30,733 nt of DNA from positions 68,132 to 98,864 of the forward strand of contig JAHPZI010000008.1 of NCBI GenBank assembly GCA_019058295.1, read 5' to 3'. Under the pieces are notes generated by a model. That model did not search any database and was not told the DNA's origin. It saw only the letters and a list, made by a program, of their open reading frames with translations. Each line of letters opens with the position of its first letter. Within the stretch, counting starts at the first letter, position 1. Position numbers and translations under genes: made by a program. Positions 11,954-27,177 of the stretch are shown one piece after another. The DNA is from Promethearchaeota archaeon. Lineage in GTDB: Archaea; Asgardarchaeota; Lokiarchaeia; Sigyniarchaeales; SOKP01.

Positions 11954-13222
11954 TTAAGTCCCTTCTTCGAATCCATGAATGTAGTTGTATTGTTCTTCTG
12001 TTAAAGTGTCAATCTCGATGCCCATTGATTTTAACTTAAGGAAACCAACCTTATCATCAATATCTTCAGGAACTTCAATAATTCCTGGTTTTAATGAATC
12101 CTTATTTTTAACTATATACTCGGACATTAAAGATTGAAGTGAGAATGACATATCCATAACTTCGCTCGGATGACCTTCGGATAGAACTAAATTTGCTAAC
12201 CGTCCTTTTGCTAATAAATATACTTTTTTTCCATCAGGAAAGATTAATTCCTCTACGTTGCTACGAATAGGTTTAATTTCTTTAGCATATTCATATAGTT
12301 CTTTGGTAGGTATTTCAATATCGAAATGTCCAAGATTCCCAAGAATGACACCGTCCTTGAGTAAATCAAACATCTCTTTAGTTGGTGTTATGACATGTTT
12401 ACACCCTGTAGCAGTAAGGACTATGTCTGCATCTGGAAGAGCTTTGGCAATAGGCATTACTTGATATCCAGCGAACCTTGCTTGGAGTGCTTTTATAGGA
12501 TCTACTTCTGTAACAATAACATTTGCTCCTAATCCTCTCGCTCTAAGTGCCATTCCTGAAGAACAATGTCCATAACCTGCAATCACGACTGTTCTTCCAG
12601 CAAAAAGAACGTGCATACCATAAATAGCGGATACAATACCTTGCCCTGTACCTAATTCATTATCAAATTGATTTTTACAACGCGCATCGTTTACTGGATA
12701 TAAAGGTACTTTTAATACACCTTGCTTCTCCATTGCTCTGAACCTTTTTACACCAGTGGTAGTTTCTTCTTGACAAGCAATTATAGTCCCAGATGAAATA
12801 AGTTCAGGAAATTCTTTATGGGCAGTAACTATCATGTCAGCTCCATCGTCAATTAAAATATTAGGTTTTGCTTTTAGGCATTCTCTAATACACCAATAGA
12901 ATTCTTCATCAGTATTTCCATGCCATGCAAAAACATTAACATCCTCCTTAACTAAGGCTGCAGCAACATCATCTTGGGTAGAGAGAGGGTTGCTCCCACA
13001 TAAATATACTTCAGCACCACCTGCTTTTAATGTTCTTGCTAAATTTGCGGTCTCTTTTGTAATATGTAAACAACCTGCAATTTTTATCCCTTCAAGAGGT
13101 TTTTCTTTCAGAAATCTTTCACGAAGAATTTTTGCAACGACAGGCATTTTATTTTCAGCAATATATATGGCTTCTTTACCTTTTTCTGCTAAATTCTCAT
13201 CGGCTACTTTATAATTTACCAT
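11954..13222 (-). CDS. ahcY: Adenosylhomocysteinase
   Basis: GCLHITKET, SNPLSTQDDVAAAL, DDGAD, EETTTGV, GHFDIEI, GRLANL and GHPSEVMDMSF motifs. AAGGTG Shine-Dalgarno-like sequence upstream. Confidence 0.97.
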   Translation of the reverse strand: MVNYKVADENLAEKGKEAIYIAENKMPVVAKILRERFLKEKPLEGIKIAGCLHITKETANLARTLKAGGAEVYLCGSNPLSTQDDVAAALVKEDVNVFAWHGNTDEEFYWCIRECLKAKPNILIDDGADMIVTAHKEFPELISSGTIIACQEETTTGVKRFRAMEKQGVLKVPLYPVNDARCKNQFDNELGTGQGIVSAIYGMHVLFAGRTVVIAGYGHCSSGMALRARGLGANVIVTEVDPIKALQARFAGYQVMPIAKALPDADIVLTATGCKHVITPTKEMFDLLKDGVILGNLGHFDIEIPTKELYEYAKEIKPIRSNVEELIFPDGKKVYLLAKGRLANLVLSEGHPSEVMDMSFSLQSLMSEYIVKNKDSLKPGIIEVPEDIDDKVGFLKLKSMGIEIDTLTEEQYNYIHGFEEGT

Positions 13223-13366
13223 TTAATTTATACACCTTTTTTTTGTATTCTATTAATTAATTACTAAAAATTAGTTTTAATAAAAATTTAAATATATTTT
13301 TAATCAAAGTGACATTTAATGGACTTAATTTTTATTGAATAATTAATGTAATTAAATGATATTAAA

Positions 13367-18355: not shown

Positions 18356-18604
18356 TTGAAAGGTTGGGTTAAACTAAATATATTTTATCTTGGCAAATCC
18401 AAAAAGAATCAAATCTTTAGGAGTACTCGTTGGAATCGGGCTAATGATGAAAAAATTTTTAGAAAAACTGTTTATAACGAAGAATACGAGAAAATTGGAT
18501 ACATTAAAGAAATTTTTGGCCCTTTAAAATTACCTTTTATATCGATTAAAACCATCCCCGGTCAAGAATTTAATCCCAAAAACAATCTTTACGTTAAAGT
18601 GTAG
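18356..18604 (+). CDS. gar1: H/ACA RNP subunit Gar1/Naf1
   Basis: V.......IG.I.EIFGP...P...IK core; directly upstream of tfb, the usual archaeal arrangement. Confidence 0.8.
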   Translation: MKGWVKLNIFYLGKSKKNQIFRSTRWNRANDEKIFRKTVYNEEYEKIGYIKEIFGPLKLPFISIKTIPGQEFNPKNNLYVKV

Positions 18605-18654
18605 TAAAAATATTTCAAAATACTTGAAATAGAATATAAAAAAAGGTGTAAAAC

Positions 18655-19620
18655 ATTTCAAGTTGGAAAGAAGTTAAAACGTTATTTGATGAAAATGACG
18701 ACGGGCTATCTGTAAAAAATTGTTCAGAATGCGGGTGTATCATATCTTACGATGAAAATAGAGGATTGATGGTATGTGAACAATGTGGTTTAATAAAATC
18801 AGAAAGATATATTGATCGAGGTCCAGAATGGCGCGCTTTTGATGCTGACCAAAAAAAGAAAAGAACTCGAACGGGAGCTCCAATGACGTACATGATTCAT
18901 GATAAAGGTTTAAGTACTATGATTGATTGGAAAAATCGTGATATTTATGGAAAAGAAATATCCGCTAGATTAAGAGCACAGATTTATAGAATCCGAAAAT
19001 GGCAGAACCGTATAAGAGTATCTAACGCAAATGAGAGGAATTTAACGTTCGCATTAAGCGAATTAGATCGTATGGCTTCAAATTTAGACCTTCAAAAAAA
19101 TTTGAGAGAATGTTCAGCAAAAATATATAGAGATGCTGTACAAGCACATTTGATTCGTGGAAGATCAATTGAGGGTGTCGCTGCGGCGAGCCTATATGCC
19201 GCTTGTCGAATGTATAAGGTACCTCGAACATTGAATGAAATTGCGGAAGTTGCTCGAGTAAACAAAAAAGAAATTGGCCGGTCATTTCGATTTATTACAA
19301 ATGAATTAAATTTAAATTTAACCCCAACGAAACCATTGGATTTCCTCATTCGATTTATAAGCGAACTTGGCTTATCTCAACAATGCCAAAGAATATCCAA
19401 AAAAATTATAAAAATAGCAGAAATGCGTGGCCTAGCTTCTGGGAGAGGTCCTACAGGAGTTTGTGCAGCCGCAATTTATGCATCATCAATTTTATGTAAG
19501 GAAAGAAGAACTCAAAGAAATATTGCTAAAATATCACAAGTAACAGAAGTTACTATTCGAAATAGATTTAGCGAATTAATTGAAATTTTTGACCTAGGAA
19601 TCCCTTTAAAAAAAAGATAA
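18655..19620 (+). CDS. tfb: Transcription initiation factor B (TFIIB); proposed ATT start at 18655
   Basis: Zn ribbon CSEC...[27 protein letters not shown] and two cyclin repeats (RGRS, SGRGP). The frame is open from 18652, and the track start at 18766 cuts off the first CxxC. Confidence 0.93.
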
Positions 19621-19675: not shown

Positions 19676-21745
19676 TTATTGCTTTTTAAGAATAGCTTTT
19701 CGCTTCATGATTACAATTAAAGAAATTACAGCAATAACAGTAAAAATTATATAGTTGTTTCCAAATGGAATTGCGGCTTCCTCGTCGTCGTCATCATCGT
19801 CGTCATCACCTGGTAAAATCCCTCCCCCGTCATTAGCAGATGTTATGGTAATTGTATAATTCAATCCGCCATTATCTAAACGAGCAATATTGCCCCATGA
19901 ATCATTGGCATAAAATAAGAACATGAGAATATCATTCGCATTTAGAGCAGAAATATCCAAGATAGAAGTCCAGTTCCCATCAGATCCCAGCGTCATTGAA
20001 CGATTAATAAATGCTCCCGTTGAATTTTCACACAAATACACCCAGAATAGATCTGAGCTATCCAAAACTGAACAATTTATCATTAAATTCAAATCAGTGT
20101 CTGAAGGGCTCGTGTTATTAAGATAGTTCTCGTTATTTTCGAAATTAATAATAGGAGGAGTTATGTCTTTAGCAGATGTTATGGTAATTGTATAATTCAA
20201 TCCGCCATTATCTAAACGAGCAATATTGCCCCATGAATCATTGGCATAAAATAAGAACATGAGAATATCATTCGCATTTAGAGCAGAAATATCCAAGATA
20301 GAAGTCCAGTTCCCATCAGATCCCAGCGTCATTGAACGATTAATAAATGCTCCCGTTGAATTTTCACATAAATACACCCAGAATAGATCTGAGGTATCCG
20401 AAACTGAACAATTTATCATTAAATTCAAATCAATGTCTGAAGGGCTCGTGTTATTAAGATAGTTCTCGTTATTTTCGAAATCAATAATAGGAGGAGTTAC
20501 GTCTTTTCCGCTTATATGAAAATTTGCTATAAATATATCTGGTTTATACCCTTTAGCAAATGAATCTGTAGCGCCAGTTATAAAAATATTTTCTGAATTA
20601 ACGACTAATATACCCATCCCCGAATCATCCTCTACACCGCCCCAACTTTGATTCCAAATCTGGATACCATCATCATCAAATTTTATTAAAATTGAATTAT
20701 TATATCCAGTTGAATTCTGTTCAGACCCTACAATGTAAATTGAATCTTCAGAATCAATATCAATTCCCCGACCCATATCTTTTCCATTACTATTATCCCA
20801 CGATTTTTGCGATAATAAATTGCCTTCATTATCATATTTTAATAAAATTATGTCGTAATCGTTGCCAGTTTTGTTGGATCCCGTAATGTAAATATTATCT
20901 TGTGAATCAATTGTAAGTCCAGATCCAGTTTCATAATGTGTTGAACCAAATGGATTATTCCAAGTTACATTCCAAATTAAATTTAAAGTACTATCATATT
21001 TTAACAAGATAATATCTGTGTTTCCAAAATAAGTATCATTTCTTCCAACAACGTAGATATTATTTAAAGAATCAATTGCTATATCTTGACCACCAGTTTC
21101 AAACCCAACACTTTCATATATATCAAATTTCTCCAATTTTCCATTTGTACTATTAATCTTTAGAATTGTGATATTACTATGAATCCCAGGATTGGCCCCA
21201 GTAGCGTAAATGAACCCATTTGAACTATAAGTAATACCATATAAAATAAAAGCTTCGGGATAATAGGTTTCATTCCACTGAACATCTCCAGAACTATTAA
21301 ATTTAATAACATTACCGAAAAAACCTGATACTCCAGCAAGATAAATATTATCAGAAGTATCATTTGTAATATCATAAGCTCCAGCTACATATCCTGCATT
21401 CCACGTTTTATTCCAAAGATAATTTCCATCTGGATCATACTTTACTAAAAATGCATAACAGTTGTAAAAGGAATCTACAGACGTTCCTGCAACATAGATA
21501 TTTCCTTCAGAATCTGTTGCAATCCCATATCCATAATCACCATATTCATTTAACCCTATGTCCCATGTCTCGTTCCATTCCATAGAAATTGCGGTTTTAG
21601 GTGGATTAACATCAATTTTTTTAACAGACTCATTAAATTTTGATTGGTTTTCTGTAATAGATGGAATACTAAATTGTTGTGAAAGAATGCAAAGAAATAA
21701 TATAACTGAAACGAATATAAGAGTTCCTTTTTGTTGGATTTTCAT
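19676..21745 (-). CDS. Secreted, membrane-anchored beta-propeller (SBBP-repeat-like) surface protein with duplicated stalk domain
   Basis: N-terminal signal helix; repeated G..I..DS..NIY..G and L.KYD..G...WN.TW blades; two 112-aa repeats; poly-Asp linker; IPFGN + TM + basic tail. Confidence 0.85.
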   Translation of the reverse strand: MKIQQKGTLIFVSVILFLCILSQQFSIPSITENQSKFNESVKKIDVNPPKTAISMEWNETWDIGLNEYGDYGYGIATDSEGNIYVAGTSVDSFYNCYAFLVKYDPDGNYLWNKTWNAGYVAGAYDITNDTSDNIYLAGVSGFFGNVIKFNSSGDVQWNETYYPEAFILYGITYSSNGFIYATGANPGIHSNITILKINSTNGKLEKFDIYESVGFETGGQDIAIDSLNNIYVVGRNDTYFGNTDIILLKYDSTLNLIWNVTWNNPFGSTHYETGSGLTIDSQDNIYITGSNKTGNDYDIILLKYDNEGNLLSQKSWDNSNGKDMGRGIDIDSEDSIYIVGSEQNSTGYNNSILIKFDDDGIQIWNQSWGGVEDDSGMGILVVNSENIFITGATDSFAKGYKPDIFIANFHISGKDVTPPIIDFENNENYLNNTSPSDIDLNLMINCSVSDTSDLFWVYLCENSTGAFINRSMTLGSDGNWTSILDISALNANDILMFLFYANDSWGNIARLDNGGLNYTITITSAKDITPPIINFENNENYLNNTSPSDTDLNLMINCSVLDSSDLFWVYLCENSTGAFINRSMTLGSDGNWTSILDISALNANDILMFLFYANDSWGNIARLDNGGLNYTITITSANDGGGILPGDDDDDDDDEEAAIPFGNNYIIFTVIAVISLIVIMKRKAILKKQ
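19833..20504. repeat. 336-bp near-perfect tandem duplication (19833-20168 and 20169-20504)
   Basis: Aligned by eye: the first 200 bp are identical and there are about six substitutions in the remaining 136 bp. Confidence 0.95.
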
Positions 21746-25680: not shown

Positions 25681-27177
25681 TTAATGTTTTCTTCTTAACT
25701 TATCTAAAAATTTATGTTCCGTTTTTCTCCTTATTAAGACGGCATAGATGAGCCCTATGGAAAAAAGTGTACAAATTCCTACTATAATATTAATTTCATA
25801 ATCTGGAAGCCATCCTAGACCTTCTGTATCATAAAATACCTCGCCAGTTTTAGAATCTCTAAAAACCTTACCCCCTGCAGCTCCCTGTTCACTATATGCA
25901 ATGACTATTTCCCAATCTTTTAGTTCATTATCTGGATTGTCTGGATCTACTTGACCATCTTCATATTCGAATTTAAGAGTTATAACAGTTCCATCGAGTT
26001 CTACATCTCCTTTCACTTTTAGATCAGGATTAAGACCTCCGATATTCGTCTCATAATCTTCACCATCAATATCAAAATCATCAATTACTGTCGCAAGATA
26101 TTTATCCGTTGGAGTATATGTTGGTAAACCCTCCATCATTAACATATAAAAGAAATTAAATTTTTCTGGAATTTCCTCATCAATAATTTCCCGTATTGCC
26201 AGTAATGCCTGTGTGCCTTCTTGAATAGGATTCTCTCCAGTTGGATTAAGAGCTGCATCTAAAACTACCGCTGGTAAATTATCCCCTCCTTCGGAAAGTC
26301 TAGGGCGTGGTATCCCTAATTCGTCTTCAAGTGTAGTGGCTATTGTCTTATTAATTTCATTCCAAAGACCAAAATCTTCATTCCTTAAATACGTAAATGA
26401 ATCATTAAAGGCATATATGGAATTTACTACTAAATCACTTCTATAATATAGCTCAGATTCTAAATCTTTTAATTTTTTATATGTATCGTACCAACTATGA
26501 GGGTCTGCCAAGAATGGGCCCCCACCTTTACTATCTGGTTTATCAGGAAAATCTCCTTCAATTCTTCTAGACCATCCTCTTGTTTCCACCATAGTACCGT
26601 CCAATTTTTCACCATATTTATTATTCACATAAGTCTGATCCATTGAATAATTTCGACAAAAATCTGTTGCAATAGAACCGTTTCCAACAACAGCGGACAT
26701 TGGAAGATCTCCTAATTCAAGAACGGAATTAATTACTCCCTCATATAGAAGAACTACTGCACCAAATCCACTTTCATTATCTCCAAGCCCATTTGTAGCG
26801 TCCATTATGTAACCAAAAACACTATTGAAATCTGTAATTTCTTCTATACTCTCAACATCGACATCTACGGTAAGTATATAGTCGGCAAAAAAATCAATTT
26901 CACATTCTTCCCAATCGACAAGTTTTCCCTTACTTTTTGCTCCAACAACGTCAGCATATTTCCCAAAAAAATCGTCTGGGTTATCAGCCCCCACTCCTAA
27001 ATGATCATCCCATTCATCCTCGTCGTATAATATTACTCGTGACTCTCCTTCAAGCTTCAGATCTCTAGTAATTTCAGGTACTCCAAATTTATAACCCCTC
27101 ACAGGTTTTGCCATAGAAAAAAAGCTAATGACAAAAATGAAAATAAAAAATACAAAATATATAATTTTTTTATTCAT
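25681..27177 (-). CDS. Acidic secreted cell-surface protein with C-terminal membrane anchor
   Basis: MNKK + hydrophobic signal peptide; Asp/Glu-rich body; LPDY + TM + RRK tail resembling the Loki-CTERM (IPGY-type) sorting signal. Confidence 0.8.
   Translation of the reverse strand: MNKKIIYFVFFIFIFVISFFSMAKPVRGYKFGVPEITRDLKLEGESRVILYDEDEWDDHLGVGADNPDDFFGKYADVVGAKSKGKLVDWEECEIDFFADYILTVDVDVESIEEITDFNSVFGYIMDATNGLGDNESGFGAVVLLYEGVINSVLELGDLPMSAVVGNGSIATDFCRNYSMDQTYVNNKYGEKLDGTMVETRGWSRRIEGDFPDKPDSKGGGPFLADPHSWYDTYKKLKDLESELYYRSDLVVNSIYAFNDSFTYLRNEDFGLWNEINKTIATTLEDELGIPRPRLSEGGDNLPAVVLDAALNPTGENPIQEGTQALLAIREIIDEEIPEKFNFFYMLMMEGLPTYTPTDKYLATVIDDFDIDGEDYETNIGGLNPDLKVKGDVELDGTVITLKFEYEDGQVDPDNPDNELKDWEIVIAYSEQGAAGGKVFRDSKTGEVFYDTEGLGWLPDYEINIIVGICTLFSIGLIYAVLIRRKTEHKFLDKLRRKH

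Follow-up and report, generated by a model that had tools for sequence, protein, structure and literature searches.

Predicted AUU initiation behind a Shine-Dalgarno element in the conserved TFB gene of a family of Promethearchaeota

The window considered in the current analysis is a stretch of 30,733 nucleotides that forms part of contig C8 in a MAG of 3.2 Mb from an Asgard archaeon of the Lokiarchaeia type (Promethearchaeota), which is 79% complete and has a G+C content of about 30%. It encodes, on the plus strand, a TFB with a zinc ribbon and two cyclin repeats. The Zn_Ribbon_TF family of Pfam (PF08271) has been assigned to residues 24-63, counted from 18652, with a score of 38.2 bits against a cut-off of 29 bits, and the two TFIIB cyclin repeats (PF00382) have been assigned with 150 bits in two stretches. 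The gene situated upstream is gar1-like, with a Pfam Gar1 score of 27.9 bits, which is just under the cut-off of 29.3 bits. The start of this gene, TTG at 18356, is itself uncertain. The features identified around the 5' end of the TFB gene are given below.

18356 to 18604, plus strand: gar1 (H/ACA RNP protein), the upstream gene, which ends 50 nt before the ATT
18638 to 18644, plus strand: A-run directly 5' of the Shine-Dalgarno (SD) element; conserved A in the orthologous regions
18644 to 18648, plus strand: SD element AGGTG, complementary to CACCU of the 16S 3' end of relatives
18646 to 18651, plus strand: in-frame GTG-TAA "start-stop", overlapping the SD and the spacer
18649 to 18654, plus strand: SD-to-start spacer of 6 nt, with low conservation at -5 to -2
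18655 to 18657, plus strand: proposed AUU initiation codon, in the position homologous to the sister-family ATG and never with G as third base
18655 to 19620, plus strand: TFB coding sequence as proposed, 321 codons plus stop, with zinc ribbon and two cyclin repeats
18658 to 18672, plus strand: conserved N-terminal codons SSWKE, with a coding-type substitution pattern
18721 to 18840, plus strand: zinc ribbon (B-ribbon, PF08271) with the knuckles CSEC (18721-32) and CEQC (18775-86)
18766 to 18771, plus strand: first canonical in-frame starts, TTG and ATG, chosen by gene callers; product without the first zinc knuckle

The TFB frame is closed by an in-frame TAA at 18649-51, which is followed by AAC and by the ATT at 18655. 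From this ATT the frame reads ATT TCA AGT TGG AAA GAA and continues to TGT TCA GAA TGC, the codons of CSEC. No ATG, GTG or TTG is present in the TFB frame of the window between the TAA and the TTG at 18766 and ATG at 18769, both of which fall between the two zinc knuckles. AAGGTG is found at 18643-48, at a spacing of 6 nt to the ATT. A previous sequence-only reading of this DNA had reported that CSEC lies upstream of the TTG and ATG, that no canonical start intervenes between the TAA and CSEC and that the ATT follows AAGGTG by 6 nt, and these observations are confirmed in the window. The GTG of AAGGTG (18646-48), which that reading missed, is itself in the TFB frame and has the TAA directly next to it. 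Zinc ribbons of TFB/TFIIB use both knuckles. With the Pfam assignment covering residues 24-63, a protein initiated at 18766 would be left without the first knuckle.

The same reading had compared the SD-like sequence with that of ahcY. The motif does recur there, as AAAAAGGTGTA before the ATG at 13222 on the minus strand, but the spacer does not correspond, being 10 nt at ahcY and 6 nt at TFB. At ahcY (window 13223-13243, minus strand) AAAAAAAAAGGTGTA precedes a normal ATG, with an A-run and a GGTGT motif as at TFB. AAGGTG occurs 10 times in the window against 8.95 expected and is no commoner than chance, so the weight of the argument rests on the comparative evidence.

Nine TFB-like matches have been identified in the genome, the eight other copies being 32-44% identical to the one linked to gar1. 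Orthologues of the gar1-linked TFB share 74-98% identity across the family, and in 81 of 85 relatives the gene is preceded on its own strand by a Gar1-like ORF, the commonest gap to tfb being 50 nt. The family-wide conservation and the linkage to gar1 fit a role of this copy as the principal TFB.

The comparison covers 40 related genomes and 80 public contigs, from which 85 distinct regions of 170 nt, anchored on the I-S-S-W motif, have been obtained. All of the 85 relatives are Promethearchaeota of one family, representing at least 13 genera; a further region (L075) was mis-anchored and set aside, which reduced 86 regions to 85. An alignment of tfb 5' regions from relatives, in search of a conserved ATT, ATC or ATA, had been suggested in the sequence-only reading, and the outcome agrees with it. 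In the 86 regions, L075 included, the codon is ATT in 74, ATC in 9, ATA in 3 and ATG in none (collectively ATH, or AUH in the RNA), the first two bases being invariant. A search with the motif in which the first residue was left free returned Ile in all the matches and Met in none.

Upstream of the ATH codon, A is found at positions -16 to -11 in 68-87% of the 85 unique regions, and GGTG at -10 to -7 is 92-96% conserved. The spacer between GGTG and ATH is poorly conserved, with the lowest stretch at -5 to -2. It is 6 nt long in most of the relatives and 5, 7 or 8 nt long in six loci (L027, L031, L050, L051, L101 and L113), and L049 has GGGAG in place of GGTG. Downstream of ATH the codon variants are TCA/TCG/TCC/TCT, AGT/AGC and AAA/AAG, and of the six codons that run from ATT to GAA, four are least conserved at the third position. 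Since the variation falls mainly at third positions, the codons following the ATT are likely to be translated in the TFB frame. This frame is open from ATH to the zinc ribbon in all 85 relatives, and the changes in its length are of whole codons.

A few of the relatives depart from this arrangement. In L046 an ATG has been gained one codon upstream of the ATH. In L024/L107 (G011 and SHMW-type relatives) the AGT TGG AAA GAA region is shifted by one base and reads TTG GAA AGA; the ISSW motif is lost and TFB starts at a canonical TTG situated 7 nt after GGTG. On the sequence, this TTG start appears to be a natural escape from the ATT start.

These data bear on the reading taken by gene callers, in which the true start is TTG 18766 or ATG 18769 and the protein (MMVCEQC or MVCEQC) functions with the first zinc knuckle missing. 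The two codons are the earliest canonical starts of the open frame, and the databases hold models of 283 aa of this kind (P0003, P0004). The first CxxC and the ISSW motif are nevertheless in frame with coding-type substitutions in the 85 relatives, the Pfam zinc ribbon needs residues 24-63, no SD precedes 18766, and many of the relatives have no start codon there at all, the residue being L, I, Y or F. A truncated TFB is hence very improbable.

Even less credence can be given to an artefact or a recoding event, whether an ATG-to-ATT or indel error, a pseudogene, or a shift of frame by ribosomes that start at 18688, where an ATG lies out of frame. The MAG is incomplete, and an out-of-frame ATG AAA ATG does begin at 18688, in a frame that ends with TAA at 18712. 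Against this, two independent MAGs from other samples, with 98% identity, have an identical 5' region (L009/L010, the same records as L039/L038), and the 85 relatives share the architecture. None of them has an interruption between the ATT and the zinc ribbon, the length changes being of whole codons only, and the conservation upstream of 18688 is that of the TFB frame. Sequencing error, pseudogene and frameshift from 18688 have been rejected on these comparative grounds.

The GTG within the SD has been considered as a start codon in its own right. In one form of this proposal the mRNA is leaderless or nearly so, beginning at GGUG, and initiation takes place at GUG 18646. Where GUG is followed by UAA the ribosome would terminate and re-initiate at the AUU 6 nt further on, and where the frame is open the product would be M-x-x-ISSW. 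The GTG is in frame with ATH in about 90% of the relatives though the spacer is variable, and no SD is found upstream of it. The gap between gar1 and tfb is about 50 nt, with TTTTCAAA or TTTTAAA-like motifs about 35-40 nt before ATH; with so short a gap and such motifs, transcription could conceivably begin near the A-run or GGTG.

The distribution of the GTG among the relatives argues against such a start. It could not start the protein in 47 of the 85 (about 55%), where it is separated from ATH by TAA, TAG or TGA, lies in another frame or has been replaced. Five genomes (L027, L050, L051, L101 and L113) have it in another frame, their spacers being 5 or 7 nt long; in L031 GGTG lies 8 nt before ATC and the usual codon position has no GTG, and in L049 GAG replaces it. 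About 24 of the loci without an upstream canonical start also lack one from ATH to the first CxxC. In the remaining 38 of 85 the GTG frame is open down to the ATH codon, so that the start-stop arrangement is not conserved, and a GUG start giving M-x-x-I-S-S-W could operate in these open-frame relatives. A TFB tree computed from the remainder of the protein requires at least 17 switches between the stop and open states, of which at least 8 are forced by well-supported branches, and some of the switches separate proteins that differ by less than 0.01 substitutions per site. An essential gene could not lose its start so often, which argues that the GTG is not the required start. The two codons after the GTG appear, from this pattern, to behave as a non-coding spacer. 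In other AUH genes of the genome GGTGA or GGAGG is situated at 6-9 nt irrespective of the frame, and re-initiation at the AUU would still be AUU initiation. Initiation based on the GUG is considered improbable. Readthrough of the TAA from the GTG has also been rejected, since the stop codon at this position may be TAA, TAG or TGA, depending on the relative, and some of the GTGs lie in another frame.

Minimal "start-stop" ORFs, in which a start codon is followed directly by a stop, are known from bacterial initiation profiling and from plant NIP5;1. The TFB gene resembles them in having GTG TAA in frame directly upstream of the presumed real start. It differs in that the arrangement alternates with open spacers at least 17 times and in that the GTG belongs to the SD, no separate recruitment signal having been seen for it.

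Searches of the 79%-complete MAG for 16S rRNA, initiator tRNA and aIF1 (PF01253) did not find them, and the 16S end and the tRNA motif were read from relatives. The 16S 3' end is GGAUCACCUCCU in one genome of the same family and in one of the same order, and AGGUG is therefore expected to pair with CACCU. Upstream of 1,254 unambiguous ATG starts of the source genome the frequency of G, otherwise about 8%, reaches about 25% at -14 to -8. AGGTG ends 5-11 nt before ATG genome-wide, with a mode of 7-8 nt, and the spacer of 6 nt at TFB is inside this range, on its short side. A count of ATG at fixed distances after SD-like words over the whole genome gave no signal, as codon periodicity swamped the count, and analyses of ORF heads were used in its place.

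The anticodon stem-loop motif of the initiator tRNA, GGGCTCATAACCC with the anticodon CAU, is present as a motif match in genomes of the same genus and the same family. An initiator-like tRNA with another anticodon has been rejected: the matches to GGGCT-NNN-AACCC other than CAT are ordinary tRNAs or coding sequence. One such candidate, GGGCTGATAACCC, lies inside a long ORF at 25681-27177 of the window, in a sequence context that is not tRNA-like. A tight array of at least 10 tRNA genes, a few bases apart and low in G+C (44-61%), is encoded at G000:C22:30700-31700. Among its members are tRNA-Ile(UAU) and tRNA-Ile(GAU), as well as an atypical tRNA-Met(CAU) whose anticodon stem is weak. This layout is unusual for an archaeal chromosome, and the array may belong to a mobile element or a virus.

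TFB orthologues in other families of the same order have ATG behind GAGGT or AGGTG. In the alignment ATG GTT AGT AAA GAA GTA (MVSKEV) of these families stands against ATT TCA AGT TGG AAA GAA GTT (ISSWKEV), and one sister-family orthologue reads AGGTGTAA ATA ATG. The simplest history suggested by this comparison would be a change from ATG to ATT at the base of the family, with the SD retained.

The occurrence of such starts in the genome as a whole has been assessed at the heads of all open frames of at least 158 codons, on those positions that are followed by no canonical start within 16 codons. A position was counted as SD-led when one of five SD words was present 4-10 nt upstream. The results are given below for each codon.

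ATT: 18 of 149 with SD (12.1%)
ATA: 14 of 140 (10.0%)
ATC: 4 of 34 (11.8%)
ATG: 128 of 1130 (11.3%)
TTG: 27 of 286 (9.4%)
GTG: 10 of 145 (6.9%)
All other codons: 53 of 1684 (3.1%)

ATH taken together is SD-led in 36 of 323 positions (about 11%) against 53 of 1684 for the other codons (Fisher's test, p = 1.5e-8), and at a control distance of 16-22 nt the ATH share is down to about 2%. About 30 ORFs of at least 158 codons (loci L134-L153 are among this genome-wide set) have an SD followed by ATT, ATA or ATC 4-10 nt on and lack a canonical start nearby, and standard gene calls would truncate all of them. Twenty such ORFs have been compared with Pfam, and in at least 10 the domain begins upstream of the first canonical start. 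The domains comprise a rubredoxin-like domain, the zinc ribbon of a second TFB paralogue, POR, flavodoxin, TruD, a Ras-family GTPase, a phosphodiesterase, MM-CoA mutase, YdjM and SIR2. The GTPase would lose its P-loop if the canonical start were used. The rubredoxin-like domain is part of a rubrerythrin, and the POR match is a subunit. Initiation at ATT, ATA and ATC behind an SD appears on these counts to be a genome-wide habit and not a peculiarity of TFB.

The second TFB paralogue (G000:C8:140-1090, locus L139/L002) is situated outside the window and has no ATG, GTG or TTG before its zinc ribbon. It reads TAG GAG TAT GGT GAT ATT ATA ATT ACG and, further on, TGT CCC GAG TGT, and its next canonical start is about 55 codons downstream. 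The ATH start of this paralogue is found only here and in one congener (G001), other relatives having ATG behind GAGGT. TruD has ATT only in the five closest genomes and ATA at another codon in one further genome of the same genus, while most of its other relatives have ATG; in MM-CoA mutase ATT is confined to the source genome. These distributions suggest that the ATH starts of all three genes are recent. The gar1-linked TFB would be distinguished from them only by an old and stable ATH, present across the whole family in at least 13 genera with no ATG.

An invariant isoleucine codon would equally fit a conserved internal isoleucine. With the first zinc knuckle out of reach of any canonical start and the SD-AUU layout conserved, initiation at AUU is well supported. 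We place at about 0.8 the probability that translation of TFB starts at AUU 18655, directed by AGGUG. This is the start put forward in the sequence-only reading, and it gains support from the 85 orthologous loci, from the ATG of the sister families and from the genome-wide association of ATH with the SD.

In the mechanism proposed here the 3' end of the 16S rRNA would pair with AGGUG (18644-48) and thereby place the AUU, 6 nt further on, in the P site. The ordinary initiator tRNA (anticodon CAU) would read the AUU with a mismatch at the third position, and the product would be (M)SSWKEVK..., with the four-cysteine zinc ribbon intact. The ancestral ATG, kept in the sister families, would have become ATT at the base of the family and remained ATH ever since, and TFB would represent one old and stable case among the AUU, AUA and AUC starts found behind an SD throughout the genome. 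That the ribosome starts at the AUU, that Met is inserted and that this start is weaker than AUG are points which we infer from sequence comparison.

The sequence-only reading had further suggested that start-codon fidelity may influence the level of TFB. In such a scheme the AUU is kept weak so that the TFB level follows the stringency of start-codon selection, that is the activity of aIF1, in the manner of infC and IF3. The complete lack of ATG in 85 relatives of at least 13 genera, despite several changes of the third base to C or A, is in keeping with it, as are the recent ATH starts of TruD, MM-CoA mutase and the second TFB paralogue, whose relatives have ATG. G is rare at third positions in this AT-rich genome, however, and third-base changes are few, which makes the lack of ATG only weak evidence. 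AUH starts in many unrelated genes require no logic specific to TFB, and TFB is not a translation factor, so that no obvious feedback loop presents itself.

A hairpin of 9 bp, which pairs the AUU in the window's own clade, could also favour such a throttle. It is formed by ACUUGAAAU (18622-30) with AUUUCAAGU (18655-63), with the AUU and the next two codons paired and the SD in the loop, and the segment 18605-18735 folds at -20.8 kcal/mol (z = -2.46). Among the relatives, only the closest (L009, L010) share the hairpin. No common pairs around the start emerged from 42 sequences with RNAalifold, and Rfam returned only a chance-level snoRNA match (E = 0.92); the throttle thus lacks a conserved RNA structure. 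The same spacer further contains ATTTCAAAA, which is nearly a direct repeat of the start region.

A TFB-specific throttle of the infC type is not supported by these results, AUH starts being general in the genome, and a TFB level that follows aIF1 activity is regarded as unlikely. Slightly more doubtful still is the wider proposal that the AUU is actively kept non-AUG across the family as a throttle, with the amount of TFB reporting the stringency set by aIF1 or by the supply of initiator tRNA. If it held, global transcription would be coupled to the state of the translation-initiation machinery in a lineage with relaxed stringency. A further trap for ribosomes may be provided by the in-frame GUG-UAA that is frequently present within the SD.

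AUU starts of the infC and pcnB type stand behind an SD and are conserved among orthologues. The TFB start shares these features, having a near-cognate AUU behind an SD and an AUU (AUH) that is conserved among orthologues, and for this codon, too, decoding by the normal initiator tRNA and sensitivity to a fidelity factor would be expected. Both infC, which encodes IF3, and pcnB are AUU-initiated bacterial genes of E. coli (PMC4705826). Unlike infC, TFB is encoded in an archaeon in which the fidelity factor is aIF1 and not IF3, and it is a transcription factor and not a fidelity factor, so that the feedback loop of infC has no direct counterpart. What is a rarity of two genes in E. coli is frequent here, with about 30 long ORFs led by an SD, where the same filter gives 128 SD-led positions for ATG. 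In Sulfolobus extracts aIF1 discriminates in vitro against non-canonical starts, according to the work of Hasenohrl et al. as cited in PMC8211752.

In our literature searches for AUU or ATT starts in archaea or Asgard the only report found is a remark on the tubulin AtubA, for which a "rare ATT start codon" behind an RBS has been inferred in a MAG of the Kariarchaeaceae, of the Heimdall group of Asgard (PMC13394414). As with AtubA, an Asgard gene is truncated by annotation, and an ATT behind a plausible RBS restores a conserved structural element at the N-terminus. The case of AtubA concerns a single gene in a single MAG and is based on completeness of the fold, whereas that of TFB is based on 85 genomes, the ATG of sister families and genome-wide statistics. 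A review of archaeal initiation lists AUG, GUG and UUG only (PMC7531240). AUU starts, absent from that review, are textbook rarities in bacteria.

Annotations of this gene differ among the databases. Translation table 11 of NCBI admits ATT, ATC and ATA as alternative initiators. NCBI records of orthologues begin with MSSW (P0002, P0010 and P0028), and P0002 is encoded on the 12,563-nt contig of L040, where the DNA has ATT. The same ATT is translated there as M, which represents an annotation choice made by homology and not a biology that has been described or tested. ENA, JGI and Prodigal-type models are truncated (MVCEQCG, 283 aa; P0003, P0004) or start at the GTG. Prodigal-type calls in this way halve the zinc ribbon or pick the GTG of the SD, and the truncated N-termini are carried over into the Asgard proteomes on which phylogenies, structure predictions and inventories of eukaryote-like proteins are based.

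If the AUU is the start, an Asgard archaeon, closely related to eukaryotes, would depend on it for an essential basal transcription factor, and the same dependence would extend through its whole family. This would point to a relaxed discrimination of the third position at initiation in a lineage with eukaryote-like initiation factors. The SD followed by 6 nt and AUU would offer a clean and conserved reporter for testing such discrimination.

Downstream of TFB the window encodes on the minus strand (19676-21745) a predicted surface protein of 689 aa. It has two almost identical segments of about 110 residues (DITPPII.FENNENYLNNTSPSD...ITITSA), which on the opposite strand appear as two near-identical ORFs of 67 aa (19923-20126 and 20259-20462).
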